DNA of 64,000 nt. Source: Actinomycetes bacterium (lineage in GTDB: Bacteria; Actinomycetota; Acidimicrobiia; Acidimicrobiales; Palsa-688). Both the position numbers and the translations under genes were made by a program. The DNA lies in contig JAJYLA010000002.1 in the NCBI GenBank assembly GCA_021788115.1, positions 20,476-84,475 on the forward strand, in the 5' to 3' direction. This document shows, piece after piece, positions 3,337 through 42,137 of the stretch (position 1 is the first letter of the stretch; each line of letters starts with the position of its first letter). The notes below the pieces were generated by a model. It was not told where the DNA came from, did no database searches, and worked only from the letters and a program-made list of their open reading frames with translations.

Positions 3337-4935
<1,599 letters not shown>

Positions 4936-15109: not shown

Positions 15110-17504
15110 CCCGTCGCGGACCGACGACCTGGCGGTGGTCGGCACGCGCCGCCCCAAGATCGACGCGATGGCGCGTCTTACCGGCGAGGCCCGCTACGCC
15201 GACGACCTGTCTATGCCGGGAATGCTCGTGGGCCGCCAGCTTCGGAGCATCCACGCCCACGCCCGGATCCGGTCGGTCGACACGAGCAGGGCGGAGGCCC
15301 TGCCGGGAGTCGTCGCCGTGATCACCGGGCGGGACGTGCCCATCGCGTACGGCGTCCTGCCGGTGAGCCAGGACGAGAACGCGCTGGCCGTCGACCGGGT
15401 CCGCTACGTCGGCGAGCCCGTGGCAGCGGTGGCAGCGGTCGACGAGGAGACCGCCGAGCAAGCCCTGCGGCTGGTGAGCGTCGACTACGAGCCGCTGCCC
15501 GCCGTTCTGTCCATCGAGGACGCGCTGGATCCCTCCGGGGTGCTCATCCACGGCGAGGGCCAGGGTGCCAACGTCCACAAGGCGGTGGCCCTCGAGTTCG
15601 GGGACGTCGACGCGGGGTTCGCGGCTGCCGACCTCGTGCGCGAGGACGTCTTCAGCTTCGCCGGCAACACCCACGCCCCCCTCGAACAGCCCGCCACCCT
15701 CGCGGCCCTCGGTGGCGACGGCCGCCTGACGGTGTGGTCGGCCACCCAGGCACCGCATTATCTGCACCGCGCCCTCGCGCGGGTGCTCGAGCTGCCGTCG
15801 TCGAGGATCCGGGTGGTGGCCCCGCCCGTGGGCGGCGGCTTCGGCGCCAAGACGGACATCCTCCCCCACGAGGTCGCGGCCGCCAAGCTGGCCATGGTGA
15901 CGGGGCGCCCCGTGAAGATCACCCTCACCCGCGAGGAGGTCTTCCACTCGCACCGGGGCCGCCACCCGGTGCAGATGTGGGTGCGCACCGGCTTCACGAG
16001 CGACGGCCGGATCACGGCGATGCACTTTCGATCGCTGCTGGACGGAGGGGCCTACGGAAGCTTCGGCGTCGCCAGCACCTATTACACCGGCGCCCTGCAG
16101 ACGACGACGTACCGCATCCCGGCGTACCGCTTCGAGGGGTTGCGCGTCTTCACGACAAAACCTCCCTGCGGCCCCAAGCGTGGCCACGGCACGCCCCAGC
16201 CGCGCTTCGCCGTCGAGCGCCACCTGGACCGTGCCGCCGAGGAGCTGGGCCTCGACCCGGTCGAGCTGCGCCTGCGGAACGCCGTGGAGCCCTTCAGCCG
16301 GACGGTCAACCACCTTCGCATCACGAGTTGCGGGATGCGTGCCTGCATCGAGGAGGTCGTGTCCGCCTCGGGATATCACGGGAAAAAGGGCCACCTCCCG
16401 CGGGGTCGGGGCGTGGGCTTCGCCGTGAGCGCCTACCTCTCGGGAGCGGGCCTCCCCATCTACTGGAACGACATGCCGCAATCGGAGGTCCACATCAAGG
16501 TGGACCGGGGCGGCGGGGTCACGGTGTTCTCCGGCGCGACCGACATCGGCCAGGGGTCCACCTCGACGCTGGCGACGATCGTGGCCGAGATCCTCGGTCT
16601 GCAGCCCGAAGACCTGGCGATGGTCACGGCGGACACGGATCTCACTCCCGTCGACCTGGGGAGCTACTCGAGCCGGGTGACCTTCATGGCCGGCAACGCG
16701 GCAATCGACGCCGCCAGCAAGCTGGCCCGGCTCGTCGCGGAGGGCGCCGCCCAACGCCTCGGCGTCCCGCCGGAAGAGCTGGTTTTCCGCGGCGGCCAGG
16801 TCGCCGTTCGCGGGGACCCGCGCAAGAGCCTCTCGTGGGCACAGGCGGTCCGCGCCGCTTCCGCCCGCGGCGCGCTCATGACGTCGGGGGTGTACTGGGC
16901 CCCCGAGATGGCAGGGCCCTACCGTGGCTCGGGCGTGGGCATCTCCCCCGCCTACAGCTATTCCGCCGCGGTGGTCGAGGTCGCAACCGATCCCGAGACC
17001 GGTGAGGTCTCCGTCGAGGAGGTCTGGATCGCCCACGACATCGGCAGGGCCATCAACCCGGTTCTGGTGCAGGGCCAGGTCGAGGGAAGCGTGTACATGG
17101 CCGTCGGCGAGGCCTTGATGGAGGAACAGTCCTTCCGTCGCCAGGGCGTCCACCGCGGCCCGTCCCTCCTCGACTACAAGCTTCCCACCACGCTGGAGAC
17201 GCCGAAGATCCACACCATCCTGATCGAGGAACCCGACCCTGAGGGTCCCTTCGGTGCGAAGGAGGCGGGCCAGGGGCCCCTGCTCCCGGTGATCCCCGCC
17301 GTGGCCGCTGCGGTCGAGGATGCCCTCGGCGTGGTCGTCCACGAGGTGCCGATCACCCCCGACCGCCTCCTCCGGGCCCTGCGCGCCGGCCACCGGGGCA
17401 AGGCCCCCGTGATCGGCCCGGCCTCGGTGCCGTCCTTCGAGTTCGGCGAGCCCGAAAGGGTCCAACCTCCGGTGGGTTCGCCGGCGGAGGTGGCGGTCCC
17501 ATGA
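15090..17504 (+). CDS. hcrA: Molybdopterin-binding large subunit of a molybdenum hydroxylase; 4-hydroxybenzoyl-CoA reductase alpha-like, 804 aa
   Basis: The sequence contains RRPKIDAMARLTGEARYADDL, VGGGFGAK, GSYSSRVT and GAKEAGQGPL, typical of the xanthine-oxidase family. GTG start overlaps hcrC by 20 nt. Confidence 0.75.
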   Translation: MTEVTVDPSRTDDLAVVGTRRPKIDAMARLTGEARYADDLSMPGMLVGRQLRSIHAHARIRSVDTSRAEALPGVVAVITGRDVPIAYGVLPVSQDENALAVDRVRYVGEPVAAVAAVDEETAEQALRLVSVDYEPLPAVLSIEDALDPSGVLIHGEGQGANVHKAVALEFGDVDAGFAAADLVREDVFSFAGNTHAPLEQPATLAALGGDGRLTVWSATQAPHYLHRALARVLELPSSRIRVVAPPVGGGFGAKTDILPHEVAAAKLAMVTGRPVKITLTREEVFHSHRGRHPVQMWVRTGFTSDGRITAMHFRSLLDGGAYGSFGVASTYYTGALQTTTYRIPAYRFEGLRVFTTKPPCGPKRGHGTPQPRFAVERHLDRAAEELGLDPVELRLRNAVEPFSRTVNHLRITSCGMRACIEEVVSASGYHGKKGHLPRGRGVGFAVSAYLSGAGLPIYWNDMPQSEVHIKVDRGGGVTVFSGATDIGQGSTSTLATIVAEILGLQPEDLAMVTADTDLTPVDLGSYSSRVTFMAGNAAIDAASKLARLVAEGAAQRLGVPPEELVFRGGQVAVRGDPRKSLSWAQAVRAASARGALMTSGVYWAPEMAGPYRGSGVGISPAYSYSAAVVEVATDPETGEVSVEEVWIAHDIGRAINPVLVQGQVEGSVYMAVGEALMEEQSFRRQGVHRGPSLLDYKLPTTLETPKIHTILIEEPDPEGPFGAKEAGQGPLLPVIPAVAAAVEDALGVVVHEVPITPDRLLRALRAGHRGKAPVIGPASVPSFEFGEPERVQPPVGSPAEVAVP

Positions 17505-18472
17505 TGCGCCTTCCGCCTTTTGCACGCCTGGCCCCGCGCACCCTCGCCGAGGCCGTCGAGATGCTCGCCGACCAGGGGCCCGGCGCGGCCGTGGTCGCCG
17601 GAGGGACCGACCTGTACCCGAACATGAAGCGGCGCCAGGTGGAGCACCACGCGCTCGTCGACCTCCGGGCGGTCGAGGGCATGCGGGGCATCCGCGAGGA
17701 GCCCGGCGGGGGGATCTCGATCGGGGCGACGACCCGGCTGTCCCACCTCGCCGGCTCTTCCGCCGTGCCCCGCGCCCTGGCGCACGCGGCGTCGGTGATC
17801 GCGAGCCCCCAGATCCGCAACATGGGAACCGTCGGGGGAAACCTCTGCCTCGACACCCGCTGCAGCTGGTACAACGAGCCGGAGGACTGGCGCACCGCTG
17901 TCGGCTTCTGCCTCAAGGCCGCCGGCGACGTCTGCCGGGTCGCTCCCGCGAAGTCCCACTGCTGGGCGGTCGCCTCCTCGGACCTGCCGCCCGTCGCGAT
18001 CGCCCTCGGGGCGTCGGTCCGTGCGGTCGGCCCCGGCGGAGAGCGCACCTTCCCCGTCGCCGACCTCTACCGCGACGACGGCATCGACCACCTCGCCCTG
18101 CTCCCGGGCGAGATCGTCGCCGAGCTTCTCGTGCCGCCCGTCGACGGCTTGCGGGTCACCTACCGCAAGATCCGGCGGCGGGGCTCCATCGACTTCCCCG
18201 AACTGGGCGTGGCCGCCTCCGTCCGCCTGGCACCCGAGGGCATCTGCGAGGCGGCCACCATCGTCCTCGGATCGGTCGCATCGGCCCCCGTGCGCTGCCG
18301 GGAGGCCGAAGACCTCCTCGCCGGCCGGCCCCTCACGCCCGAGGTTATCGAGGAGGCGGCCGCGGCGGCGGCCCACCCCGCCAAGCCCCAGGACAACACC
18401 GACCTCTCCCACGTCTACCGCAAGTGGGTCATCCCGATCCACGTGTCGCGCGCCCTGCAGAGCCTGTCCTGA
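17501..18472 (+). CDS. hcrB: FAD-binding medium subunit with an inserted Cys-rich loop; 4-hydroxybenzoyl-CoA reductase beta-like, 323 aa
   Basis: VVAGGTDLYPNMK and GTVGGNL are FAD-binding CODH-medium-subunit motifs. Residues 116-154 form the insert CLDTRCSWYNEPEDWRTAVGFCLKAAGDVCRVAPAKSHC. ATGA overlap with hcrA. Confidence 0.75.
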   Translation: MMRLPPFARLAPRTLAEAVEMLADQGPGAAVVAGGTDLYPNMKRRQVEHHALVDLRAVEGMRGIREEPGGGISIGATTRLSHLAGSSAVPRALAHAASVIASPQIRNMGTVGGNLCLDTRCSWYNEPEDWRTAVGFCLKAAGDVCRVAPAKSHCWAVASSDLPPVAIALGASVRAVGPGGERTFPVADLYRDDGIDHLALLPGEIVAELLVPPVDGLRVTYRKIRRRGSIDFPELGVAASVRLAPEGICEAATIVLGSVASAPVRCREAEDLLAGRPLTPEVIEEAAAAAAHPAKPQDNTDLSHVYRKWVIPIHVSRALQSLS

Positions 18473-18514: not shown

Positions 18515-19420
18515 ATGGACGGCCGTCTCGAAGAGATAGAGGGTTGGCCGGATGGTTCGTCGCCGCAGGACCGATTCCTCCAGGGCGGTCCGAGCGCCCG
18601 CTCTCTGCTGCTGACCATCCTCGGGGAGTACGTGCTGCCCCGCGGGCAGGCGGTGTGGACCGCGACGCTGCTCGAGGCGCTCTCCCTGCTCGGAGTCGAG
18701 GACAAGGCCGGCCGTCAGGCGCTCGCCCGCGCCGCCAAGGGCGGCTGGCTGTCCGCCGAGAGGATCGGCCGCGCCGCCCGATGGACGCTCACGGACCGTG
18801 CACGGTCCGTGCTCTCCGACGGCGCCGAGCGCATCTACGGGTTCGACCCGACGAGAGCCGGCTGGAACGGCAAGTGGCTGCTGCTCATGGTCTCCGTGCC
18901 CGAGGAGCGCCGCGCCGACCGCCACGTGCTTCGGACCCGGCTCGCCTGGTCCGGCTTCGGCTCCCTCGGCCAGGGCGTCTGGATCTCGCCCGACACGTCA
19001 CGCCAGGCCGAGGTGGGGGCCCTCCTCGGCGGCGTCGAGCCGCCCACGCGGGCGGTCACGTTCGTCGCGGAGCTCGGCGTCCTCGGCGACGCGGCGACCC
19101 TCGTCCGCCAGGCGTGGGACCTCGGCGCGCTCGACGAGCGCTACGCCGTGTTCGTCGCCGCCTTCGAAGGCGCGCCGGGCCGGCCGGCGGAGGGGCACGC
19201 CGCCGAGGCCTTCGCCACCAAGACCAGGATCGTCCACGAGTGGCGGAAGTTCCCTTTCATCGACCCGGGGCTGCCGACTGAGTTCCTGCCGAGCGGGTGG
19301 TCGGGGGGCAAGGCCCGCGCCCTGTTCCGCCGGCTGCACAGCCAGCTCGCTCCTGCCGCCGACGCGTGGTTCGACGGGAGCAGGCGCCAGGTGGAGGCCC
19401 GCCGGCAGCCGGTTCTCTAG
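18515..19420 (+). CDS. paaX: PaaX-family transcriptional repressor (phenylacetyl-CoA-responsive family), 301 aa
   Basis: The sequence contains ARSLLLTILGEYVLPRGQAVWTATLLEALSLLGVEDKAGRQALAR, GKWLLLMVSVPEERRADRHVLRTRLAWSGFGSLGQGVWISP and EWRKFPFIDPGLP. All three are PaaX-type segments. Confidence 0.8.
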   Translation: MDGRLEEIEGWPDGSSPQDRFLQGGPSARSLLLTILGEYVLPRGQAVWTATLLEALSLLGVEDKAGRQALARAAKGGWLSAERIGRAARWTLTDRARSVLSDGAERIYGFDPTRAGWNGKWLLLMVSVPEERRADRHVLRTRLAWSGFGSLGQGVWISPDTSRQAEVGALLGGVEPPTRAVTFVAELGVLGDAATLVRQAWDLGALDERYAVFVAAFEGAPGRPAEGHAAEAFATKTRIVHEWRKFPFIDPGLPTEFLPSGWSGGKARALFRRLHSQLAPAADAWFDGSRRQVEARRQPVL

Positions 19421-19827
19421 TCCTCGCCGAGCGCGCCGCGGGCCGCGGGGAACAGGGCCTGGTCCTCGCGGTCGATGTGCCCGCCCAGCAGGTCGCACAG
19501 CTCCAGGCACACGCCCGCGGCGTTCGGGCCGGTTTCTCCGCTGTACAGGGCGTCGCGCAGCGAGAGGATCCGTTCGTGCTCCCCGGCGAAGACGCCGACC
19601 ATCTCTGCGCCGAGGAACTCCTCGAGAGCCGGGAAGAGGGTCTCGTCCTCCAGTTGGCTGTGCTCGTCGAGCGCCGGCCCGAGGACGGCGGCGAAATCCG
19701 GCAGCCTCGCGGCGAGCTGCTCCACGTCGCCGGCATCGGCCGGCGCGCCCAGGGCGGCGAGCGCTTGGCGCACCTCGACGTGCTCGCGCTCGAGACGGTC
19801 GATCAGCACGAGCAAGGCGTCGCTCAC
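19417..19827 (-). CDS. Hemerythrin HHE cation-binding domain protein, about 136 aa
   Basis: Repeated H/E ligand motifs are present: LEREHVEV, DEHSQLEDETLFPALE, GEHERI and HIDREDQALFP. The GTG start at 19827 overlaps the upstream stop (GTGA). The convergent stop shares CTAG with paaX. Confidence 0.7.
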   Translation of the reverse strand: MSDALLVLIDRLEREHVEVRQALAALGAPADAGDVEQLAARLPDFAAVLGPALDEHSQLEDETLFPALEEFLGAEMVGVFAGEHERILSLRDALYSGETGPNAAGVCLELCDLLGGHIDREDQALFPAARGALGED

Positions 19828-20081
19828 CGGGCGACCCCCGCTTCGGGGCGTCGCGTGTAGAGCACGACGTAGCGCTCGCAGGCCACCAGCACGCACCCGG
19901 CGCACTGGGGACCGAAACCACCGGGGTCTATCGGCCGGGTCTCCACCTCGTATCCGAGGCTCTCGTACAGTTCGGTGAGCTCCCCGACCCTGGCGACGGG
20001 CGCCTCGAAGCGCCGTTCCCATCCCGACGCCTCGAGGTCCCCGGCAGGCTCGCGCACCGTCACTTGGATCGCGCCTGGCAT
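19824..20081 (-). CDS. Small conserved-looking hypothetical protein with a CxxC...C motif, 85 aa
   Basis: The sequence is MPGAIQVTVREPAGDLEASGWERRFEAPVARVGELTELYESLGYEVETRPIDPGGFGPQCAGCVLVACERYVVLYTRRPE. Composition is balanced. It lies 13 nt downstream of the crotonase and is translationally coupled to the hemerythrin. Confidence 0.55.
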   Translation of the reverse strand: MPGAIQVTVREPAGDLEASGWERRFEAPVARVGELTELYESLGYEVETRPIDPGGFGPQCAGCVLVACERYVVLYTRRPEAGVAR

Positions 20082-20094
20082 CCCCGCCGCTCCC

Positions 20095-21168
20095 CTACTC
20101 CGCCGAGGCCGGGGTGTCGGCCGGCTTGCCGTCGCTCAGGGGATGGCCACACTTGCCGCAATAGAGGAACTCCGAGGGCAGGTAGCGGGCGCCGCAGCTG
20201 GGGCAGGTCTTGGCGTACGGCCCCCAGCGGAACTCCGACGATCCACCCGAGGCCGCACGGTGGCGCAGCATCTTGTAGTCGGGCTGGCGCTTCTCCACGA
20301 ACGCGCCCATGCCCTCGAGCGGCTCCAGGCTCGTGTAGTGGACGGACAGCCAGTCACGGGCGTGGCCGACCGTCTGGTGCCACGCCAGCCCCTTCCAGAA
20401 GTTCACCTGCTCCTTGGTGTAGCGGGTGCACTCGGGGAACTGCTCGATCAGGTCACGGGTCAGCCCGTCGACCGCCTCGTCGAGCTTCGACAGGTCGATC
20501 GAGTACCCGTCACGGTTCTTCTTGGCCAGGGCGATCTGCTCGGGCGTCGCGTGAACGATGAATTCTCCGTCCTTGACGACCGAGGGGACCACCTCGTTGA
20601 CCAGGCCCCACTCCAGCGCCTGGTACGCAGGGACCGGCCGGTTGAGCATGAGCATCCAGCGGGCGCGGCGGTCGCCGACGAAGACCGGCAGCCACTGGGT
20701 GGCGCCACCGGCGGCCACGCTGCCGACCCGGGTCCCGACCTGGCCCACGTAGGCGTGCTCTGCGATCACGGAGAGATCACAGGCGAGGTGGCTCTCGTTG
20801 CCGCCGCCGACGGCCATGCCGTTGACCCGGGCGATGACCGGCTTCCCGGTGTTGAGGATGCTCTCGATGTACGCGCTGAAGAGGCCCATGTACTTCCAGT
20901 AGTCGTGGGGCGACTGTGTGTAGAGGCTCTCGTACTCCTTGACGTCCCCCCCGGTGCAGAACGCCGCCGTGCCGCTGCCGGTGAACACGATCACCGCAAC
21001 CTCGTCGTCGAACGCCGCCTCCCGGAACGCCGCAGCGAGCTCGATCAGCGCCCGGGTGCTGTACGCGTTGTAGGCCTCGGGCCGCTGGATGGTGATCGTG
21101 GCCACCCAATCCTGTTTGCTGTAACCGATCTCGGTGTACTCGACGGAGGGGAGCTTCTCGAACGTCAT
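20095..21168 (-). CDS. Crotonase-superfamily enzyme, BamA/Oah-like (6-oxocyclohex-1-ene-1-carbonyl-CoA hydrolase candidate), with a C-terminal zinc ribbon, 357 aa
   Basis: The sequence contains FTGSGTAAFCTGGDVKEYESLY..YWKYMGLF..KPVIARVNGMAVGGGNESHLACDLS..GSVAAGGATQWLP. Its long C-terminal part includes FPEC, which fits my memory of ring-cleaving Oah/BamA rather than short ECHs. The tail CPSCGARYLPSEFLYCGKCGHPL is a CxxC-X11-CxxC ribbon. AGGAGG lies upstream. Confidence 0.6.
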   Translation of the reverse strand: MTFEKLPSVEYTEIGYSKQDWVATITIQRPEAYNAYSTRALIELAAAFREAAFDDEVAVIVFTGSGTAAFCTGGDVKEYESLYTQSPHDYWKYMGLFSAYIESILNTGKPVIARVNGMAVGGGNESHLACDLSVIAEHAYVGQVGTRVGSVAAGGATQWLPVFVGDRRARWMLMLNRPVPAYQALEWGLVNEVVPSVVKDGEFIVHATPEQIALAKKNRDGYSIDLSKLDEAVDGLTRDLIEQFPECTRYTKEQVNFWKGLAWHQTVGHARDWLSVHYTSLEPLEGMGAFVEKRQPDYKMLRHRAASGGSSEFRWGPYAKTCPSCGARYLPSEFLYCGKCGHPLSDGKPADTPASAE

Positions 21169-21273: not shown

Positions 21274-21302
21274 TTGCACTACGTGTACCGCTGCGCTATA
21301 CT
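21274..21302 (+). promoter_or_regulatory. Candidate promoter of the benzoyl-CoA reductase operon (TTGCAC-17 nt-TATACT)
   Basis: TTGCAC lies at 21274-21279 and TATACT at 21297-21302, with exactly a 17-nt spacer, inside the most AT-rich patch of the intergenic region. Confidence 0.5.
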
Positions 21303-21307
21303 CGATT

Positions 21308-21335
21308 TTAGTCTACCGGACAGAAGGTAGAATAA
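21308..21335. promoter_or_regulatory. Operator candidate: inverted repeat TTAGTCTACC-N8-GGTAGAATAA (9 of 10 positions pair) just downstream of the -10
   Basis: Read directly from the sequence. The arms are 21308-21317 and 21326-21335, and the core TCTACC/GGTAGA pairs perfectly. The position suits a repressor blocking the bcr promoter. Confidence 0.45.
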
Positions 21336-21397
21336 ATGCCGAGGGACCCGCAGGGCGACCTGGGGTCCGCGACCCGCTTGGGGAGGATGAGGTGCCG

Positions 21398-22564
21398 ATG
21401 ACAGTTCGCCTGCTCGACGATTGGGAGGATCTCCCACTCGACGACCTCCTGCGCTACTGCCGTGACGTCGTCGAGGATCCCGATTACCCGACGGTCAAGC
21501 GCTGGCGAGAGGCCGGCGGCAAGGTCGTCGGTCACTTCCAGGTCTACTTCCCGGAGGAGATCGTGGAAGCCGCCGGTCTGCTTCCCGTCAAGGTCCAGGG
21601 CGCCACGGTTGAGCCGCGCCAAGGCGACGCCCACTTCGGAGCCTACCTGTGCTCCATCGTCAAGACCTCCCTGGAGCTCGGGCTGTCGGGCCGCCTCGAG
21701 CTGGACATGTTCGTCTCGCACCCGATCTGCGACACGGCGCGCAACCTGGCGGCCGTCTGGGGGCGCAACTTCTCGTACCCCTGCGAGGTCCTCTACCTGC
21801 CGCAGAACCCGAACTCGGCCCATTCGGTGGCCTACCTGCGCGGCGAGTACGACCGCCTGCGGCGCGGCATCGAGGAGATCGCCGGCCGGTCGGTCACCGA
21901 CGACGACCTGCGCGCCGCGATCGCGGTCTTCAACGAGAACCGGCGCCTGCTGCGCCGGCTCTACGACATCAAGCGCGAGTCGCCGTGGCTCCTTGCCGTG
22001 GACGAGGCGTACGTCCTCGTGGCCCTGGGCGGCCGGATCCCTCGCTCCGAGCACAACCGGCTGCTGAAGGCGGCGATCCCGATGATCGAGAAGCGCGACG
22101 CGGCGCCCCAGGACCGGATGCGGCTCGTGTTCGAGGGTGGGTTCTGCGAGCAGCCGCCCCTCGACCTGCTGACCACGATCGCCCAATCCTCCTACGTGGT
22201 CGACGACGACTTGCTCATCGGCCTGCGATGGCTCACCGACGACGTCGCCGCCGACGGCGACCCCCTCGAAACCCTCGCCCGGGCCTACCACGAGCAGTCC
22301 AGCTACAGCGCTGTGCAGCACGACCTCCGCAAGCCGAAGGAGGTCATGCTCCTCAAGCGGATCCGTGAGTCCGGCGCCGGCGCCGCGGTGATCAGCGCCG
22401 CCAAGATGTGCGAGCCGGGTCTCGACGAGCTGGTTCCCCACATGAAGGCCCTCGACGAGGAGGGAATCCCCTATTTCGTCAACGAGTTCGAGGAGAACAT
22501 GACGAGCTTCGACACCCTGCAGATCCAGCTCGAGACCTTCATCGAGAACGTCCTCTTCGCGTGA
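21398..22564 (+). CDS. bcrC: Class I benzoyl-CoA reductase subunit C-like (BcrC/BadD/BzdO family; 2-hydroxyacyl-CoA dehydratase fold), 388 aa
   Basis: This is the in-frame ATG within track ORF 21221..22564, preceded by GGGGAGGATGAGG. The sequence contains VVGHFQVYFPEEIVEAAGLLPVKV, HPICDTARNL and AAKMCEPG. Confidence 0.8.
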   Translation: MTVRLLDDWEDLPLDDLLRYCRDVVEDPDYPTVKRWREAGGKVVGHFQVYFPEEIVEAAGLLPVKVQGATVEPRQGDAHFGAYLCSIVKTSLELGLSGRLELDMFVSHPICDTARNLAAVWGRNFSYPCEVLYLPQNPNSAHSVAYLRGEYDRLRRGIEEIAGRSVTDDDLRAAIAVFNENRRLLRRLYDIKRESPWLLAVDEAYVLVALGGRIPRSEHNRLLKAAIPMIEKRDAAPQDRMRLVFEGGFCEQPPLDLLTTIAQSSYVVDDDLLIGLRWLTDDVAADGDPLETLARAYHEQSSYSAVQHDLRKPKEVMLLKRIRESGAGAAVISAAKMCEPGLDELVPHMKALDEEGIPYFVNEFEENMTSFDTLQIQLETFIENVLFA

Positions 22565-22576
22565 ACGGAGACCCCG

Positions 22577-23929
22577 ATGAGCACTGACACAACCAACCAA
22601 TCCAGCCGGCCCGGCGAGCCCGACGCCCAGCACGACTCCATAGTGGGTCGAGGCAACCGAGAAGGCAGCCGGCTCTTCCGCCAGTGGTACGAAGAGCTGA
22701 CGACCGCCCCCGAGCGCGGCGAGAAGGCCGCCTACGTCTTCGTGATGGGGAGCCTCGCCGAGCTGCTGAACTCGTTCAATCTCAACCTCGTGTTCCCCGA
22801 GATCAACGGCCTGCAGACCGCCGTCCGCCACGTCTCGGAGTCCTACATCACCCAGGCCGAGGACTACGGCTACAACTCGGACGTCTGCGGGTACGTGAAG
22901 GCGGATCTCGGGCTGCAGCTGCGCGGCGGCGACCACCCGATGGGCAGGATCCCCCGGCCGGACATCGCCGTCTACACCGGCGCCTGCAACACCTACATCA
23001 AGTGGGCGGAGATCTGGGAGCGGCTCTACGGCATCCCGATCTTCACCCTCGACGTCCCCGGGCCTCGAGCGGCCGGGCGGCTGCCCGGGCGCGGCCACGT
23101 CGACTACGACAACGACCTGCGCTACGTCGCCGGCCAGATCGAGGAGCTGATCTCGGTGCTGGAGAACGTCACCGGCACGCGCTTCGACGTCGACCGCCTC
23201 CGGGAGGCGATGGCCTACGCCAACACCATGACGACAGCCTGGGTGAAGATCCTCGAGCTCAACCAGAGCCGCCCCGCCGTCTACGACGCGGTGACCGACG
23301 GCACGTCGTACCTCGGCGTGGCGAACGGCTTCCGGGGTCGGCCCGAGGGGGCCCGCTACTTCGAGGAAGTCCTCGAGGAGCTCGAGTACAAGGCGGCGAC
23401 AGGCATCGGCACCTCCCACGACCAGCGCCACCGACTGGCTTTCGTCGGCGTTCCCTGCTATCCGATCTACCGGCGCTTCAGCGAGATGTTCACCGAGCGG
23501 GGCGGGGTGTTCGTCGGGTCGACCTACACCTGGTTCGCCTCCGGCGGGTGGAACTCCGGCTACCTCTACGACCTGGACAACCCCCTCGAGAGCCTCGCCG
23601 AGGGGACGCTGATCACCTCCCGCGAGGCGATGAACGACATGTTCCACGCGGACCGGCTGCTGGCCGACATGGTCGAGCCGTTCGGGCTCGACGGGGTCGT
23701 CTTCCACGGCATCAAGTCGTGCCGGACGGTGTCCTCGGGCCTGGCCGACTCACGGCGAGCGGTCATGGAGCTGGCCGACGTGGGGACCCTGCTGATCGAC
23801 TCCGACCACATGGACCCGCGGTCGGTTTCCGAAGCACAGATCAAGAACCGCGTCGACGCTTTCTTCGAAGGTCTCGAGACGCGCAAGCTGCTCGCCGCAG
23901 CAGGCGAGCCGGAAGGGAGCCGGCGATGA
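22577..23929 (+). CDS. bcrB: Class I benzoyl-CoA reductase subunit B-like (BcrB/BadE/BzdN family), 450 aa
   Basis: The sequence contains [52 protein letters not shown] and [11 protein letters not shown], typical of the BcrB/HgdB fold. Confidence 0.8.
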
Positions 23930-24744
23930 CCTACGCAGCCGGAGTGGACGTGGGCTCCACTCAGACCAAAGCCGTCATCATCGACGGCGACCTCCGGATC
24001 GTGGGCCGGGCGCTGATCGATACCGGATCGAGCGTCACCCTCGCCGCCGAGCGCGCCTACGAGATCGCGCTCACCGAGGCGGACATCCGGGAGGAACAGG
24101 ACGGCGTCGGCTACATCATCGGCACCGGCTACGGCCGGTACAGGGTGACCTTCGGCGACTCCCAGACGACGGAGATCTCCTGCCACGCGCGCGGTGCGGT
24201 GCACATGTTCCCCGGCACCCACACGGTGCTCGACATGGGCGGGCAGGACACCAAGGCGATCAAGGTGAACCCCAACGGGGAGGTCCTCGACTTCTCGATG
24301 AACGACAAGTGCGCAGCGGGGACCGGACGCTTCCTCGGAGCGGCCTCCGCCGCCCTGGAAATCCCCCTCGACGATCTGGGCCCCACGGCGCTTCTGTCCG
24401 ATCGGCCCGTCAAGATCTCCACAACCTGCACGGTGTTCGCGGAATCGGAGATCTTGTCGTGGCTCGGCAAGGGCAAGAAGACCGAGGACATCCTGCTCGG
24501 CGTCCACCAGTCCGTCGGGTCGCGCGCCCTCGCCCTGCTTCGCCGGGTGGGCATCGAACGCGAAGTGACCTTCACGGGAGGGGTTGCGCGCAACTCCGGC
24601 ATGGTCGAGGTGATCTCGGGTCTCCTCGGCTTTCCCGTCAACTACAGCGAGGAGTCCCATTTCATGGGCGCCCTCGGGGCGGCGCTGTTCGCCATGGACC
24701 GCATCCGCAGCCGGCAGGTGCCGGCCATGACCTCGGAGGCCTGA
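23926..24744 (+). CDS. Benzoyl-CoA reductase ATPase subunit (BadF/BadG/BcrA/BcrD ASKHA family), 272 aa
   Basis: ATGA overlap with bcr[14 protein letters not shown] is the ATP phosphate-1 motif. [11 protein letters not shown] is also present. [11 protein letters not shown] and [10 protein letters not shown] provide the two Cys residues expected to ligate a bridging [4Fe-4S] cluster. Confidence 0.8.
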
Positions 24745-24746
24745 TC

Positions 24747-25559
24747 ATGAGTCACATCGTGGGCGTCGACGTTGGATCGACCTATACGAAAGCCGTGGTG
24801 ATCTCGGAGGAGGGCGCCCTCGTCGGGCGGTCCCTCCGCCGCACGGGCTTCAAGCTCGCCGAGGCCGCGCAGGAAGCGCTCGACGGGGCGCTCGAGGCTG
24901 CAAAGCTCGAGAGGAGCGACGTTGCCTACATCTCGACGACCGGGTACGGGCGCTTCCAGCTCGGGAGCCGGCAGCTCAATGTGACCGACCTCACGGCATC
25001 CGCCTGGGGGGCGCGCTTCCTCTACCCGGGGACCCGCACCGTCCTCGACGTGGGAGGCCAGACCATGAAGGCCAGCCGCATCGACGAGAACGGGCGCGTG
25101 CAGTCGTTCCGCCTCAACGACAAGTGCGCGGCCGGTACGGGCGCGTTCCTCGAGAAGACGGCCCGCTACATGGGCTACAGCACCGACCAGGTCGGGCCGC
25201 TGGCGGCTACGTCACGCGAGAACGTGCCGATCTCCGGCGTGTGCGCCGTGTTCGCCGAGGCCGAGGTGATCAACCACCTGTCGCAGGGAGTGGCCCCCGC
25301 CGACATCATGCAGGGAGCCATCTCCTCGCTCGTCACCCGCTCCGTGCAGCTGATGAAGCGGGTCAAGATGGAGCCCGAGTTCACCCTGGTCGGCGGGATC
25401 CTCCGCTTCGAGACGATGGCAGAGCTGCTCCGGGGCAGGCTCGGAGCCGACGTGCACGTCCCCGAGGGCGACATGGTGCAGTACGTGCTCGCTCTGGGCG
25501 CCGCGCTGCTCGGCCGGCGCCGGCTGCAGAAGCTCGCCCTCGAGGGGGCGGCCGCCTGA
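24747..25559 (+). CDS. Second, distinct benzoyl-CoA reductase ATPase subunit (BadF/BadG/BcrA/BcrD family), 270 aa
   Basis: The sequence contains [35 protein letters not shown] and GVCAVFAEAE. It is a clearly diverged paralogue of the preceding gene. Confidence 0.8.
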   Translation: MSHIVGVDVGSTYTKAVVISEEGALVGRSLRRTGFKLAEAAQEALDGALEAAKLERSDVAYISTTGYGRFQLGSRQLNVTDLTASAWGARFLYPGTRTVLDVGGQTMKASRIDENGRVQSFRLNDKCAAGTGAFLEKTARYMGYSTDQVGPLAATSRENVPISGVCAVFAEAEVINHLSQGVAPADIMQGAISSLVTRSVQLMKRVKMEPEFTLVGGILRFETMAELLRGRLGADVHVPEGDMVQYVLALGAALLGRRRLQKLALEGAAA

Positions 25560-25579
25560 GAGTGCGGCCGGATCCACGG

Positions 25580-25598
25580 ACCGGCGTGCCGGTAGGAT
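25580..25598. promoter_or_regulatory. Palindrome ACCGGC-GT-GCCGGT abutting a TAGGAT -10-like hexamer, immediately upstream of the TetR gene
   Basis: ACCGGCGTGCCGGT lies at 25580-25593 with perfect 6-bp arms. TAGGAT lies at 25593-25598, 8 nt before the ATG at 25607, which suggests a short-leader or leaderless transcript. Confidence 0.35.
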
Positions 25599-25606
25599 CT
25601 GGGAGC

Positions 25607-26344
25607 ATGCCAGGCTCGGCGAGTCACCCGACCGATCCCGGGCCGTTGGGTGACGCCGCGGGGGCACCCCCGCGGCGTCACCCCGGGCGGCCCCGCCACA
25701 CCGAGCCGAGCGCCGAGTACCAGGCGCGCATGACCGAGATCGTCGAGACGGCCGCCCGCGTGTTCCGCGAGAAGGGCTACGACGCCGGCTCCCTCGACGA
25801 CGTGGCAGGCGCGCTCGGCCTGCGCAAGGGCAGCCTGTACTACTACGTGCGCTCCAAGGCCGAGCTGCTGTACCTGGTCTTCAACCGGGCGATCTCGAGG
25901 TCGCTCGACCGGCTCGATGAGTGCGAGCAGATCGAAGACCCGCGTGACCGGCTGGCCGCCTTGATCCGGCACCAGGCGGTCAGCGTCGCGGAGGAGCCGA
26001 GCTTCTTCTCGGTGTTCTTCGACCAGCGCCCCCGCCTGGCCGCCACTTATGAAACGGAGATCCGGGTCAAGGAGCGCCACTACCTGCACGTCTTCGCCGA
26101 GGCCGTGGCCGCGGCGGTGAAAGAAGGCACGATCATTCCCGTGGAGCCCCGCTACGGTGCGCAGGCCCTCCTCGGCATGACCAGCTGGGTGTACAAGTGG
26201 TTCGAGCCCGGCCGCGACGACATCGAGCAGTTCGTCCAGAGCTGCGTCGATCTCCTCCTGTGCGGCGGCCGGGCGACCAATGGACGGCGCCCCCGGTCGG
26301 ATTCACGCCGTCGAGCGATCGGGGCCGGCGCGCGCCCCCAGTGA
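25607..26344 (+). CDS. TetR-family transcriptional regulator, about 245 aa
   Basis: IVETAARVFREKGYDAGSLDDVAGALGLRKGSLYYYVRSKAELLY is a TetR HTH. The start could instead be the internal MTEIVE. The 3' end overlaps the convergent ligase gene by 42 nt. Confidence 0.8.
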   Translation: MPGSASHPTDPGPLGDAAGAPPRRHPGRPRHTEPSAEYQARMTEIVETAARVFREKGYDAGSLDDVAGALGLRKGSLYYYVRSKAELLYLVFNRAISRSLDRLDECEQIEDPRDRLAALIRHQAVSVAEEPSFFSVFFDQRPRLAATYETEIRVKERHYLHVFAEAVAAAVKEGTIIPVEPRYGAQALLGMTSWVYKWFEPGRDDIEQFVQSCVDLLLCGGRATNGRRPRSDSRRRAIGAGARPQ

Positions 26345-27862
26345 GCGCAGCACGTGGCGGCGGAGCTTGCCCGTCGACGTGCGCGGCAGCTCGTCCACGA
26401 ACTGGACGGATCGCGGCACCTTGTAAGGAGCCAGGTGGCGCCGCGCCAGCAGGATGATCTCGGCCTCCAGCGCCTCCGAGCCGCTCACGCCCGCACCCGG
26501 GACGACGAACGCGCGCAGCCGCGTCGCGCCGAGGTGATCGGGCACGGCGGCAACGGCCACCTCCCCGACGTGCGGGTGTGAGGCGAGGACCGTCTCGACC
26601 TCGACGGGAGAGACGGAGATGCCCCCGACCATCTCGATGTCGTCGGCGCGGCCTTTGTGGTGGACGAAGCCGTCGTCATCGACGTACGCACGGTCGCCCG
26701 TGTGCAACCAGCCTCCCACCAGCACCCGCTCCGTCTCCTCGGGGCGCCCGTGGTAGCCGGTCATGAGGGTCGGGCCCCGCACCCACAGGGATCCGACGCT
26801 CCCGGGGGGAAGGTCCTCCCCCTGGGCGTCCCGCACGCTGATCTCGTAGCCGGGCAGGACGACCCCGCAGGTCCCCGGCCGCTGCCGCTCGAGCGTGTTC
26901 GCGATGAACAGGTGCCCCACCTCGCTCGAGCCGAGGGCGTCGAGAACGGGGACACCGAGGAAGTCCGATACGCGGGCGCACAGGGCGGGCGACATCACCT
27001 CGCCGGCGGAGACGGCCACGCGAAGCGAGCGGAAGCACCCCGGGTCCCCGTCGGCGAGCAGCATGGCGTAGAAGCTGGGCACGGCGAAGAAGACCGTGGG
27101 GTGGGTCCGGCACGCCAGCGCCGACACGGAGGCGACGGTCGGGCGGCCCGGCTCGAGGACCGCCGTGGCGCCGGACGAGAGCGTGGTGAACACGGTGTTG
27201 CCGAGGCCGTAGGAGAAGAAGGCTCGCGACACCGAGTACAGCACGTCGTCGGGGACGATTCCCAGCGCCGCCCTCGAGACTGCGGCGGAGTGCCAGCGGA
27301 TATCCGAGTGCCGGTGAAGCACGAGCTTCGGCCGACCTGTCGTGCCCGAGGTGTAGAGCCCGTAGAGTGCAGCCCCGTCGCCGGGGTCTGCAGGCTCGGC
27401 CGGGGAGCGGGACAGGCCGGCGGCCTCGAGCTCTGCTCCCGACACGGCGGGAGTGCCCGGAAAGGCCGGCGCGAGCTCCGGCTCGCACACGACCAGCGAC
27501 GGGGCGGCGTCGTGCGCGATGTACTCGAACTCCTCGGGAACCAGGCGGGGGTTTATCGGCACGGCCGTGGCACCGAGGCGCGCCACCCCGAGGAAAGCCA
27601 GAAGGAAGGCGACGCGGTCGTGAAGCGCGATCAGGACACGGTCGCCCTGCGCGACGCCGCGCTCGGCCAGAAGGCCCGAGCTGGACGCCACGGCGTCGTA
27701 AAGCTCGCGGTAGGTCCAGACGCGCTCGGATTCGATGAACGCGCGCCGCTCCAGCCACCCCGAGGCGGCCGCCAGCTCGGCGAGCTCGACGGCCGCGTTG
27801 CGGTAGGCAACCCCCTGCGCGGCGCTCTGCGGAGTGGCCGGTGCTGTCAGCGCCCTTGCCAT
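26303..27862 (-). CDS. Benzoate-CoA-ligase-family AMP-forming aryl-CoA ligase (benzoate / 4-hydroxybenzoate type), 519 aa
   Basis: The sequence contains YTSGTTGRPKLVLHRH, SFYAML, TGDRAYVDDDGFVHHKGRADDIEMVGGISVSPVEVE and PRTSTGKLRR. Confidence 0.75.
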   Translation of the reverse strand: MARALTAPATPQSAAQGVAYRNAAVELAELAAASGWLERRAFIESERVWTYRELYDAVASSSGLLAERGVAQGDRVLIALHDRVAFLLAFLGVARLGATAVPINPRLVPEEFEYIAHDAAPSLVVCEPELAPAFPGTPAVSGAELEAAGLSRSPAEPADPGDGAALYGLYTSGTTGRPKLVLHRHSDIRWHSAAVSRAALGIVPDDVLYSVSRAFFSYGLGNTVFTTLSSGATAVLEPGRPTVASVSALACRTHPTVFFAVPSFYAMLLADGDPGCFRSLRVAVSAGEVMSPALCARVSDFLGVPVLDALGSSEVGHLFIANTLERQRPGTCGVVLPGYEISVRDAQGEDLPPGSVGSLWVRGPTLMTGYHGRPEETERVLVGGWLHTGDRAYVDDDGFVHHKGRADDIEMVGGISVSPVEVETVLASHPHVGEVAVAAVPDHLGATRLRAFVVPGAGVSGSEALEAEIILLARRHLAPYKVPRSVQFVDELPRTSTGKLRRHVLRSLGARAGPDRSTA

Positions 27863-28674
27863 TCGGGTGGCCTCTTGGCGTTGAACGCGGCGTGGAACTC
27901 TGCGTAGTCCTCGCTGTTCATCAAAAGCGCCTGGGTCATCGCCTCGAGCTCGATGGCACCCGACAGCGGCATGTCGAGCTCACGCGAGAGCAGCGACTTC
28001 GTCTGCGCGTACGCGAAGAAGGGCCCGCCGGCCAGCCGGCGTGCGAGAGCGCCGACGGCCTCTTCAATGGCGTCGTCGTCGACGAGCTGGCTGACCAGCC
28101 CGTAGCGATCCGCCGTCTCGGCGTCGATCGTGTCGCCGAGCATGAGCAGCTGGGTGGCCCGCCCGAGACCGACGATCCTCGGGAGCAGGTACGCCGAGCC
28201 CATGTCGGCTCCCGCCAGCCCGACCTTGGTGAAGAGGAAGGCGAACCGGGCGGACCGGGTGAGGATGCGGAAGTCCGACGCGAGGGCGATGACCGATCCG
28301 GCTCCGGCCGCGATGCCGTGCACCGCCGCGATCACCGGCAGCGGGCATTCGCGTATCGCCTTGACGACGTCGCCGGTCATCCGGGTGAACTCGAGCAGCT
28401 CGTCCGGCCGCATCTTCAGAAGCTCGCCGATGATCTCGTTGACATCGCCTCCGGAGCAGAACGCCTTGCCCTCTCCCCGGATCACCAGCACCCGGACGTC
28501 TTCGTGGTACGGAAGCTCGCGGATCAGGTCGCGCAGGTCCGCGTAGCTCTCGAAGGTCAACGCGTTGAGCTTGTCGGGGCGGTTGAGAGTGACCGTCGCC
28601 ACGTGCTCGGCGACGTCGAAGCGGAAGTGCTGCCACGTCGCGGTGAACGGGACGGAACCTCGGAACGGGCTCAT
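27847..28674 (-). CDS. Enoyl-CoA hydratase/isomerase family protein, 275 aa
   Basis: The sequence contains VATVTLNRPDKLNALT, GEGKAFCSGGDV, PVIAAVHGIAAGAGSVIALASDFRI and a C-terminal EFHAAFNAKRPP. Confidence 0.8.
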   Translation of the reverse strand: MSPFRGSVPFTATWQHFRFDVAEHVATVTLNRPDKLNALTFESYADLRDLIRELPYHEDVRVLVIRGEGKAFCSGGDVNEIIGELLKMRPDELLEFTRMTGDVVKAIRECPLPVIAAVHGIAAGAGSVIALASDFRILTRSARFAFLFTKVGLAGADMGSAYLLPRIVGLGRATQLLMLGDTIDAETADRYGLVSQLVDDDAIEEAVGALARRLAGGPFFAYAQTKSLLSRELDMPLSGAIELEAMTQALLMNSEDYAEFHAAFNAKRPPEWQGR

Positions 28675-28723: not shown

Positions 28724-29506
28724 TCAACCGGCCATGGTCAGGCCGCCGCTGGCGCTCAGCACCTGACCGGTGACGTAGGACGCTTCGGCGGAGGCCAGGA
28801 AGGCGACGACGTAGGCGATCTCCTCGGGCCGGCCGAAACGGCGCATCGGGATGGCCCGAAGCAGCGCCTCTTGTATCTTCTCGGGCTGAGCCCGGAGCAA
28901 CGGGGTGTCGGTCGGGCCCGGCGCGACGCAGTTGACGTTGATCCCGTGGCGGGCCATTTCGCGCGCGAGCGACTTGGTGAAGGCGATCACCCCGCCCTTG
29001 GCACCCGCGTACACGGTCTCGCCCAGGCTTCCCACACGCCCGGCATCGCTCGAGACGTTGACGACCCGGCCCGGCATCCCGGACCGCACGAGCGGCGTCA
29101 GGAAGGTGCGGCAGACCATGACGGGACCGAGAAAGTTGAGTGCGGTGACGTTCTCGATGAAGTCGGGTTCGTTGTCGAGGAACGGGTGCCCGCGGTTCCA
29201 GCCGGCACCGTTGACGATGATGTCCACGAGGCCGAACTCCTTCTCGATCATCGCCTGCAGATGCTCGATACTCTCCCGGCTGCGCACGTCGACCAGGAAT
29301 CCGCGCGCCTTTCCTCCCTGCTCCTCGATCGCGGCGGCGGTGGCGTCGGCCGAGGGCAGGTCGATGTCGGCAGCGGCGACCGTCGCACCCGATCCGGCGA
29401 GCACCCGGGCGATGGCTGCCCCGATACCCGACCCCGCACCGGTCACCACGGCGGTGTGCCCACTCAGATCGATGTTCACGCTCTCTCTTCCTTTCTCCGG
29501 GACCAC
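28724..29506 (-). CDS. SDR-family dehydrogenase, BadH-like (2-hydroxycyclohexanecarboxyl-CoA-dehydrogenase-like), about 250-260 aa
   Basis: The sequence contains VVTGAGSGIGAAIA, NGAGWNRGHPF, SSDAGRVGSLGETVYAGAKGGVIAFTKSLAREMARHGINVNCVAPGPTDTPLL and GQVLSASGGLTMAG. These closely follow the BadH pattern as I remember it. The start may be the GTG at 29479. Confidence 0.7.
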   Translation of the reverse strand: MVPEKGRESVNIDLSGHTAVVTGAGSGIGAAIARVLAGSGATVAAADIDLPSADATAAAIEEQGGKARGFLVDVRSRESIEHLQAMIEKEFGLVDIIVNGAGWNRGHPFLDNEPDFIENVTALNFLGPVMVCRTFLTPLVRSGMPGRVVNVSSDAGRVGSLGETVYAGAKGGVIAFTKSLAREMARHGINVNCVAPGPTDTPLLRAQPEKIQEALLRAIPMRRFGRPEEIAYVVAFLASAEASYVTGQVLSASGGLTMAG

Positions 29507-31165: not shown

Positions 31166-32116
31166 GTGCCCCGAGATACCCGCACGCCGGACCCTCCCCC
31201 GATCGTCACGCCATCGGCGGAGGTCCACCGAGCCCTCCGAGGAGGGGAGCCTGTCGTCGCCCTCGAGTCGACCCTCCTCTCCCACGGGCTGCCCCGCCCC
31301 CTCAACCGGCAGATCGCCCGCGACATGGAGGACCTCGTGCGGGCCGGCGGCGCCGTGCCGGCCACCGTCGCCGTCCTCGACGGCGTCCCGCTGGTCGGCC
31401 TCGAGGCCGACCAGCTGGACCGGATCACCTCCGAGGGGGGCCTGCGCAAGATCAGCCGGCGCGACGTCCCTGTTGCCTGGGCGCGGCGCTCGAGCGGCGG
31501 CACCACCGTCGCCGCCACCGCGTTCCTCGCCTCCGTCGCCGGCATCCGGGTCTTCGCCACGGGCGGTCTCGGCGGTGTCCATCGCGGATGGCACGAGAAC
31601 CGGGACGAATCCGCCGACCTGCAGACGTTGAGCGCGACACCCATCACCGTGGTGTGCGCCGGGGTGAAGTCCATCCTCGACGTCGGGGCCACGCTACAGA
31701 AGCTGGAGACTCTCGGGGTCACGGTCGTCGGCTACCGGACGGACGCCTTCCCCGGCTTCTACCTGCGCGACTCGGGCCACCCGGTGGACTGGCGGGTGGA
31801 CTCACCCGAGGAGGTCGCCGCGATCATGTCCGCCCAGACCCGCCTGGGCGGCGCACCCGCCGCCGTCGTGGTCGCCAACCCGCTGCCCGCCGAGGCGCAG
31901 CTCGACCCGACGCTGCACGACGCGGTGCTCGAGCAGGCGCTCGCGGCGGCGGACCGTGACGGTGTCCGGGGGCAGGGCCTCACCCCGTACCTCCTGCAGT
32001 ACATGGTGGACGGCACCGGCGGGGCGTCGCTCGACGCCAACCTGGCGGCCGTCCGATCGAACGTCGAGCTGGCCACGCGCATCGCGGTGGCCTGGCACGC
32101 CCGCCAGGGCGCGTGA
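31166..32116 (+). CDS. psuG: Pseudouridine-5'-phosphate glycosidase, 316 aa
   Basis: The sequence contains PVVALESTLLSHGLPRP, SGGTTVAATAFLASVAGIRVFATGGLGGVHRG and ADLQTLS, which are characteristic of YeiN/PsuG. Confidence 0.85.
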   Translation: MPRDTRTPDPPPIVTPSAEVHRALRGGEPVVALESTLLSHGLPRPLNRQIARDMEDLVRAGGAVPATVAVLDGVPLVGLEADQLDRITSEGGLRKISRRDVPVAWARRSSGGTTVAATAFLASVAGIRVFATGGLGGVHRGWHENRDESADLQTLSATPITVVCAGVKSILDVGATLQKLETLGVTVVGYRTDAFPGFYLRDSGHPVDWRVDSPEEVAAIMSAQTRLGGAPAAVVVANPLPAEAQLDPTLHDAVLEQALAAADRDGVRGQGLTPYLLQYMVDGTGGASLDANLAAVRSNVELATRIAVAWHARQGA

Positions 32117-42093: not shown

Positions 42094-42137
42094 AGGAGAC
42101 GCCTCTTTCTCGCTGGTCGGCTCGGCCGTCCTGGCGC

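Follow-up and report, generated by a model that had tools for sequence, protein, structure and literature searches.

We analysed a 64,000-nucleotide stretch (the window) of contig JAJYLA010000002.1 from the actinomycete assembly GCA_021788115.1, in which four adjacent genes very probably encode a complete ATP-dependent benzoyl-CoA reductase (BCR) of class I and of the methylbenzoyl-CoA reductase (MBR) type, an enzyme that would dearomatise its substrate in the anaerobic degradation of aromatic acids. This reading is based on the subunit set, the similarity to the Mbd proteins, the invariant ligand residues, a phylogenetic tree, the flanking genes and the conserved gene order. The genes, termed A to D (Table 1), are co-directional and separated by a 12-nt gap (A-B), an ATGA overlap (B-C) and a 2-nt gap (C-D), which reproduces exactly the four tightly packed genes at 21398-25559 of an original prediction made from the DNA letters. 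Two different proteins of the HGD-D family (PF06050; A and B) are encoded together with two different ATPases of the BcrAD_BadFG family (PF01869; C and D), and the E-values against solved homologues, 1e-88 to 1e-158 for the four subunits, are far beyond chance. Third-position GC of 0.87-0.93 for A and B (two frames scored) marks them as coding, and the long antisense open reading frames (ORFs) are the usual artefact at 70% GC. The gamma subunit A is predicted to be the Fe-S electron-transfer partner of the beta subunit B, the predicted substrate-binding catalytic subunit.

Class I reductases fall into three types, BCR, MBR and BZD (PMC11971306). We compared the four proteins with all PDB sequences, with NCBIfam models that have curated equivalog cut-offs and with Pfam. 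The best PDB match of every subunit is its counterpart in the solved 3-methylbenzoyl-CoA reductase entries (9g87, 9gai, 9gal and 9gba), at 58% identity for A and MbdN, 51% for B and MbdO, 67% for C and MbdQ, and 54% for D and MbdP. Because the four subunits match MbdN, MbdO, MbdQ and MbdP (300-530 bits) far better than the catalytic subunits match BzdN and BzdO (just 91-104 bits), we assign the operon to the MBR type and not to the Bzd type. The Bzd-type assignment that had been proposed from the short ATPases does not hold, since the Mbd enzyme likewise has ATPases (MbdQ and MbdP) of only some 270 aa. Bzd-type membership was rejected both on the equivalog scores, which lie far below their cut-offs (TIGR03190/91/92, 104/454, 97/449 and 181/380), and on the three of six BzdN cysteines that are missing from A.

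Among the NCBIfam families, the Thauera-type models are the best for the catalytic subunits, with 212-256 bits compared to 97-104 bits for the bzd-type models. They are also the best equivalog models for both ATPases, where the general acyl-CoA dehydratase activase domain TIGR00241 outscores them. By the subunit letters of the models (TIGR02259/60/61/63), the scores and cut-offs are 256/421 for C, 212/487 for B, 198/578 for A and 139/313 for D, the first being the score of gene A against TIGR02263 (benz_CoA_red_C). Of the 432 positions of the BcrA model, the alpha subunit encoded by gene C matches no more than the C-terminal half.

We inferred the roles of the MBR residues from the study of BzdNO (PMC11971306), in which Cys95, Cys128 and Cys380 of the BzdO catalytic site are cluster ligands and Tyr97 and Tyr298 bind the thioester. 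These residues align with Cys104, Cys137 and Cys382 and with Tyr106 and Tyr317 of B, respectively. Together with Glu75 of the FPEIN motif, which is probably equivalent to BzdO Glu65, they are invariant in 119 close homologues, and MbdO and two representatives passing TIGR02260 (BcrB) have them as well; the cluster cysteines and thioester tyrosines are common to BzdO too. Tyr140 of B (about 22994-22996) is likewise invariant in the 119 homologues; it is replaced by Phe in MbdO (Phe132) and in the true BcrB representatives and corresponds to BzdO His131, which lies beside the catalytic Fe-OH2 (iron-bound water). All six cysteines of A are common to MbdN. Because cysteines of A align with just three of the six BzdN ligands of the [8Fe-9S] double cubane, a Bzd-like double cubane is not expected in A. 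Subunit C carries the motifs DKCAAGTG and CTVFAESE and subunit D carries DKCAAGTG and GVCAVFAEAE; they align with MbdQ/MbdP and with the activators of 2-hydroxyacyl-CoA dehydratases (HADs) and provide two cysteines per ATPase. Two distinct ATPases of about 270 aa, each with DKCAAGTG and C-x-VFAE(S/A)E cysteines, were therefore described correctly from the start.

A neighbour-joining tree of full-length beta-subunit representatives with MbdO, BzdO and HadB groups B with sequences from Actinomycetota metagenome-assembled genomes (MAGs), next with Chloroflexota/Tectimicrobiota and then with MbdO, a placement that agrees with the bit scores. The clade of B and MbdO is sister to a group with the two TIGR02260-passing BcrB representatives, with several clades that bear no label between the MBR and Thauera types. 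HadB-like sequences branch at a great distance from B, so that branching inside the 2-hydroxyacyl-CoA dehydratases, named in advance as the sign of a misassignment, was not seen in this tree. The PDB scores, the model scores and the tree agree that the operon encodes a complete four-subunit class I aryl-CoA reductase, as originally predicted, and not a 2-hydroxyacyl-CoA dehydratase.

A search over 1.84 billion cluster representatives returned just 155 clusters at E <= 1e-30, and relatives of the operon were found at at least 536 places in GTDB species genomes. The best 80 of these places (61-79% identity, all in MAGs) comprise 24 Chloroflexota, 20 Acidobacteriota, 20 Gemmatimonadota, 10 Actinomycetota and 6 other loci, and the compact four-gene order is identical in all 73 that hold all four genes. 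The sole proteobacterial label among the 80 is that of a 2.6-kb contig of a Pseudomonas sp. MAG (L037, DATDTH010000464.1), which is very short and probably reflects misbinning, not a genuine Pseudomonas operon. No cultured strain was found among the named close relatives in the protein and genome searches. The literature already lists class I bcr genes from MAGs that belong to Chloroflexi, Acidobacteriota, Bathyarchaeota and other groups (PMC6472368, PMC11704145), and bcrBC has been reported for Acidimicrobiia UBA5794 (PMC12008989). Because the same operon is so widely spread in uncultured phyla, the original view of an actinobacterium as an unusual home for a class I reductase is weakened: it holds for cultured, biochemically studied organisms and not overall.

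The nearest beta subunits come from Acidimicrobiales/Actinomycetes MAGs (68-79% identity). The nearest Actinomycetota loci share the flanks of the window, namely the TetR gene (65-72% identity), the Hcr genes, PaaX, the Oah-like gene and aconitase-like genes. The named relatives of the neighbouring PsuG (pseudouridine-5'-phosphate glycosidase) are all from Actinomycetota, with 63-68% identity. Because the nearest syntenic operons and the PsuG relatives belong to the Actinomycetota, the evidence supports an uncultured actinobacterium, not a proteobacterium, as the host, in line with the earlier suspicion. Identical proteins occur in the ENA assembly ERZ27233565 (k141_1657048, 128,002 bp) and in the SRR13170411 assembly (Logan contigs). 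Exact-match searches with subunit B, and with the UbiD-like and CoA-transferase proteins taken from their longest starts, returned no match, whereas other proteins of the window led to the ENA contig. Scanning the window with Rfam and for tRNAs gave no hits and so no taxonomic markers. A tblastn search against plasmids returned only distant matches of at most 27% identity and gave no sign of plasmid carriage.

The closest characterised system is MbdONQP (mbd cluster, PMC4424350), with which the operon shares subunit lengths (here/Mbd, 388/388, 450/445, 272/269 and 270/273 aa in the order A to D), the conserved gamma-subunit cysteines, the three beta-subunit cluster cysteines, short ATPases and a nearby TetR-family regulator. 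It differs from MbdONQP in its order N-O-Q-P, which is that of bcrCBAD, in the residue at Tyr140, in its host, which is actinobacterial and not betaproteobacterial, in a TetR that is not an MbdR orthologue, in the operon-linked Hcr module and in the lack of an MbdM-type ferredoxin gene in the window. BcrCBAD of Thauera aromatica and BadDEFG of Rhodopseudomonas palustris have the same order of gamma, beta, alpha and delta genes and, as judged from the TIGR02260-passing representatives, the same cluster ligands and Glu/Tyr residues, but the scores against their models are only 139-256 bits (cut-offs 313-578) and the identity of B to true BcrB representatives is about 35%. BzdNOPQ of Aromatoleum sp. 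CIB (PDB 8s02; PMC11971306) has short ATPases, a [4Fe-4S] site with three Cys and the tyrosines that bind the thioester in common with the operon, but BzdO is only 28% identical to B, His131 of BzdO is replaced by Tyr and A has half of the BzdN double-cubane cysteines. The 2-hydroxyisocaproyl- and 2-hydroxyglutaryl-CoA dehydratases (PDB 3o3m, 4eht and 1hux) belong to the same radical-enzyme superfamily, with both Pfam families and activator-type cysteines, but have a separate homodimeric activator in a setting of amino-acid fermentation, whereas the window has two distinct ATPases within the operon in a setting of aromatic catabolism.

Several points weigh against our reading. All subunits score below the equivalog cut-offs of both the Thauera-type and the bzd-type models, the identity of B to MbdO is just 51%, and the tree is a simple distance tree of a single subunit. 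Tyr in place of Phe or His near the catalytic cluster may mean that substrate range and proton delivery differ. No stand-alone ferredoxin ORF was found in about 81 kb (the window, 7.7 kb upstream of it and 9 kb downstream of it), three proteins encoded nearby (Oah-like, BadH-like and HcrB-like) stay under their own cut-offs, and we found no biochemical work on any member of the clade in the literature.

An alternative is a dearomatising class I reductase whose substrate is a ring-substituted aryl-CoA, such as 3-methyl-, 3-halo- or 3-hydroxybenzoyl-CoA, with benzoyl-CoA not being the physiological substrate. The nearest characterised enzyme is named a 3-methylbenzoyl-CoA reductase, the adjacent ligase has similarity to hydroxybenzoate ligases too (FadD22 and HbdA; Table 1), and Tyr140 is specific to the clade. 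We nevertheless regard this explanation as unlikely: the operon is linked, here and in the six closest actinobacterial loci (L001-L006), to the genes of an HcrCAB-like enzyme that forms benzoyl-CoA, 51% identity to MbdO does not permit the transfer of an enzyme name, and the window shows no other reductase of class I or class II that could handle benzoyl-CoA. The sub-cut-off scores and the unlabelled clades between the MBR and Thauera types would also fit a reductase of the same family that acts on a CoA ester which is non-benzenoid or partly reduced (alicyclic or like tetrahydronaphthoyl-CoA) or that has a biosynthetic role. This is very improbable given the monoaromatic-catabolism setting (Hcr, an Oah-like hydrolase and a gene of the benzoate-CoA ligase family), and given that the window showed no genes for polyketides or non-ribosomal peptides and none of naphthoyl-CoA type.

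That a 2-hydroxyacyl-CoA dehydratase with its activator was misread as a reductase is effectively refuted. The Pfam domains are identical and the ATPases reach 157-218 bits with solved HAD activators, but the catalytic subunits reach 110/136 bits with HadB/HadC of 2-hydroxyisocaproyl-CoA dehydratase compared to 477/530 bits with MbdO/MbdN, and the HadB/HadC equivalog models score 145 and 164 bits with cut-offs of 750 and 700. Two different ATPase genes in one operon, the tree placement and a setting without amino-acid fermentation argue in the same direction. Scarcely more credible is a recent proteobacterial transfer or a chimeric contig that would make the actinobacterial setting an artefact. 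The GC content of the operon (67.7%) is slightly lower than that of the window (70.8%), and a recombinase/relaxase-like gene lies about 4 kb past the 3' end of the window. Against this stand the nearest relatives (68-84% identity), which are Actinomycetota MAGs with shared flanks, and the independent assembly of the same sequence in the Logan contigs of SRR13170411; moreover, MbdONQP, the sole characterised MBR-type enzyme compared and of proteobacterial origin (PMC4424350, PMC11971306), is just 51-67% identical.

For an MBR-type benzoyl-CoA reductase, we propose the following route. The adjacent CoA ligase would activate aromatic acids, and the HcrCAB-like molybdenum enzyme would dehydroxylate 4-hydroxybenzoyl-CoA to benzoyl-CoA. 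Reduced ferredoxin, for which the indolepyruvate and 2-oxoacid:ferredoxin oxidoreductases (IOR/OFOR) of the window are plausible suppliers, would pass an electron to a [4Fe-4S] cluster that the two different ATPases hold between them with two cysteines each. ATP hydrolysis would then bring this electron to a very low potential and send it via the gamma-subunit Fe-S cluster to the [4Fe-4S]-water cluster that three cysteines hold in the beta subunit, and two such rounds would convert benzoyl-CoA, or a close ring-substituted analogue, to cyclohexadienoyl-CoA. The nearby hydratase, the BadH-like dehydrogenase and the Oah-like hydrolase could then open the ring.

In canonical bcr, bzd and mbd clusters the ferredoxin gene (fdx, bzdM or mbdM) is part of the cluster; here, as predicted, none is adjacent to the operon or present in the window or its flanks. 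The only CxxCxxCxxxC motifs among the ORFs of the window belong to domains of the IOR/OFOR proteins, and a search for a pseudogenised copy in the window with the ferredoxin of the relatives matched solely the Fer4 domain of IorB. A ferredoxin gene of about 95 codons lies 1.3-5 kb from the operon in L001-L006; in L001-L004 its place is immediately upstream of hcrC, and in L005 and L006 the distance to the operon is 3.7 kb. In the window, the position upstream of hcrC is taken by an IclR regulator gene. The ferredoxins of the relatives share the motif TYVIG..C..D.SCV.VCPVDCI ... CIDCAACVEPCP, from which we take them to be of the 7Fe type, and the FdxA-like one of L002 contains MAYVIGAACIDTLDRSCVDVCPVDCI. 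The donor was originally left open for lack of a ferredoxin gene at the locus. This lack is real, but the gene beside hcrC in the relatives and the IOR/OFOR genes in the window narrow the question: the donor is likely a ferredoxin like that of the relatives, encoded elsewhere in the genome and reduced by IOR/OFOR, whose link to the reductase we infer. The C-terminal domain of IorB has two CxxCxxCxxxCP motifs, and its gene is wedged between a genuine IorA and the oxidoreductase alpha/beta pair; the domain resembles a fused ferredoxin subunit of the 'delta' kind that is part of the downstream enzyme or is shared with it.

Textbooks link class I benzoyl-CoA reductases with facultatively anaerobic Proteobacteria and, to our knowledge, biochemical work on these enzymes is confined to a few of them. 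The operon leaves the known mechanism unchanged and opens no new class. We suggest with some reserve, as a possibility that falls well short of being probable, that it represents a distinct and unstudied class I sub-lineage of the Actinomycetota, Chloroflexota, Acidobacteriota and Gemmatimonadota. The marks of this sub-lineage would be the invariant Tyr by the cluster, the Oah-like hydrolase with a zinc-ribbon tail, a dehydrogenase of the short-chain type and, in actinobacteria, a 7Fe-type ferredoxin and the Hcr module. If this were true, ATP-driven dearomatisation would be common in largely aerobic or facultative soil lineages, with proton-delivery chemistry or a redox partner possibly unlike those of the proteobacterial models. 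The clade of the operon has a wide distribution among uncultured phyla of soils and sediments, and the window offers a complete actinobacterial example with genes for the ligase, 4-hydroxybenzoyl-CoA reductase, reductase, ring opening and ferredoxin-reducing enzymes. It can be used to annotate clade genes that are now labelled '2-hydroxyacyl-CoA dehydratase family', and it helps in choosing a Gram-positive enzyme for expression.

Table 1. Coordinates of the reductase operon and of other features, with the matches on which each assignment is based (window positions unless a locus is given).
Feature	Position	Strand	Evidence
Gene A, gamma subunit, MbdN/BcrC-like, 388 aa	21398-22564	+	PF06050 209 bits; PDB 9g87_B (MbdN) 530 bits
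Gene B, beta subunit, MbdO/BcrB-like, 450 aa	22577-23929	+	PF06050 ~210 bits; PDB 9g87_A (MbdO) 477 bits
Gene C, alpha subunit, MbdQ-like ASKHA ATPase, 272 aa	23926-24744	+	PF01869 203 bits; PDB 9gai_D (MbdQ) 387 bits
Gene D, delta subunit, MbdP-like ASKHA ATPase, 270 aa	24747-25559	+	PF01869 177 bits; PDB 9gai_C (MbdP) 300 bits
Promoter/operator-like element (predicted)	21297-21332	+	TATACT, then TAGTCTACC-N8-GGTAGAA
Inverted repeat	21307-21336		Upstream of operon
Stem-loop, terminator-like without T tract	25648-25683	+	Perfect 17-bp stem, arms 100% complementary
TetR-family regulator, candidate operon repressor	25730-26344	+	TetR_N and TetR_C_24; 65-72% identical near operon in L001-L006
PaaX-family regulator	18515-19420	+	PaaX, PaaX_M, PaaX_C; 62-64% identical near operon in L002, L007, L008
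HcrC-like 4-hydroxybenzoyl-CoA reductase subunit	14594-15094	+	Best match among TIGR03193/4/5, 188 bits
HcrA-like subunit	15090-17504	+	Best match among TIGR03193/4/5, 891 bits (cut-off 994)
HcrB-like subunit	17501-18472	+	Best match among TIGR03193/4/5, 260 bits, below cut-off; PDB 1rm6_B match
Hemerythrin-domain protein	19417-20022	-	PF01814; homologues near operon in L007 (47%), L008 (56%), L021 (>=50%)
Oah-like crotonase-family ring hydrolase with C-terminal zinc ribbon	20095-21168	-	TIGR03200 (dearomat_oah) 218 bits (cut-off 464)
Benzoate-CoA ligase family protein	26303-27862	-	TIGR02262 367 bits (cut-off 375); FadD22 354; HbdA 323
Enoyl-CoA hydratase (crotonase), candidate dienoyl-CoA hydratase	27847-28674	-	NF006107 422 bits (cut-off 330)
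BadH-like short-chain dehydrogenase, candidate hydroxyacyl-CoA dehydrogenase	28724-29506	-	TIGR03206 (benzo_BadH) best, 246 bits (cut-off 431)
PsuG	31166-32116		Named relatives all Actinomycetota
2-oxoacid:acceptor oxidoreductase beta	39292-40128	-	Same block (39292-43949) as the three genes below; match of the block, NF006412 473 bits (cut-off 411)
2-oxoacid:acceptor oxidoreductase alpha	40125-41240	-	Same block
IorB fused to 2x[4Fe-4S] domain	41245-42081	-	POR gamma domain; Fer4 motifs
IorA	42138-43949	-	TIGR03336 696 bits (cut-off 651)
Two family-III CoA-transferases	862-2103; 2100-3305	-	
UbiD-family decarboxylase	3337-4935	-	
3-hydroxybenzoate 6-monooxygenase-like	7166-8374	+	402 bits (cut-off 459)
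Ferredoxin genes of relatives	L001 10098-10538; L002 9377-9673; L003 14129-14494; L004 14354-14650; L005 4786-5109; L006 4734-5084		

The intergenic region 5' of gene A has 229 bp and a GC content of 58%, and the operator-like motif within it (Table 1) recurs in L001-L006, again upstream of the operon; these loci have also retained the TetR gene. A sigma-70 promoter scan returned nothing near the operon. Downstream, the region 25560-25729 folds with z = -4.98 compared to shuffled sequences. The TetR was rejected as an MbdR orthologue, as the match is 27 bits and confined to the helix-turn-helix region. A TetR repressor acting on the conserved operator probably controls the operon, and an aryl-CoA inducer might relieve this repression. 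In four Anaerolineae loci (L011, L013, L028 and L029), runs of heptamer-like tandem repeats (CAGTAAT/CAGTGAT/CTGATAA) lie immediately upstream of the operon, at a distance of about 100-150 nt from its first gene.

The region is an aromatic-catabolism island with anaerobic and aerobic routes. Five of five cysteines of the loop insertion that is specific to 4-hydroxybenzoyl-CoA reductase are conserved in HcrB in an alignment to PDB 1rm6_B. TIGR03200 (6-oxocyclohexene-carbonyl-CoA hydrolase) is the best model for the Oah-like protein, which reaches 158 bits with BadI. Its gene is divergent from the operon in the window; 26 of the 80 loci have an orthologue (at least 55% identity), which in 19 of those is directly upstream and co-directional. 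The zinc-ribbon tail (CPSCG..YLP..F.YCGKCG) lies outside the region matched by the canonical Oah model and is conserved in relatives from Actinomycetota and Chloroflexota (L007-L016, L024 and L027). The enoyl-CoA hydratase, which is 82% identical and operon-linked in L003 and L004, matches a generic family only and may act on dienoyl-CoA. Because the Oah-like, BadH-like and HcrB-like scores are under their cut-offs, the downstream route is just approximately known and could be either Thauera-like or Rhodopseudomonas-like. Two PaaK-like ligases are also encoded in the window, further off from the operon.

A hemerythrin gene stands beside the operon of the oxygen-sensitive reductase in several actinobacterial loci, and its product could be an O2/redox sensor or buffer. 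About 4 kb past the 3' end of the window (L082, 13416-15485), a 689-aa protein with Resolvase and Replic_Relax domains is encoded, hinting that the island could be, or border, a mobile element. At the other end of the window, the two adjacent family-III CoA-transferase genes lie next to the gene of the UbiD-family decarboxylase (compare L084, 1122-3565). To us, this layout recalls what we take to be the anaerobic phthalate route, in which succinyl-CoA:phthalate CoA-transferase and phthaloyl-CoA decarboxylase lead to benzoyl-CoA. The 3-hydroxybenzoate 6-monooxygenase-like gene implies an oxygen-dependent aromatic route beside the anaerobic one.

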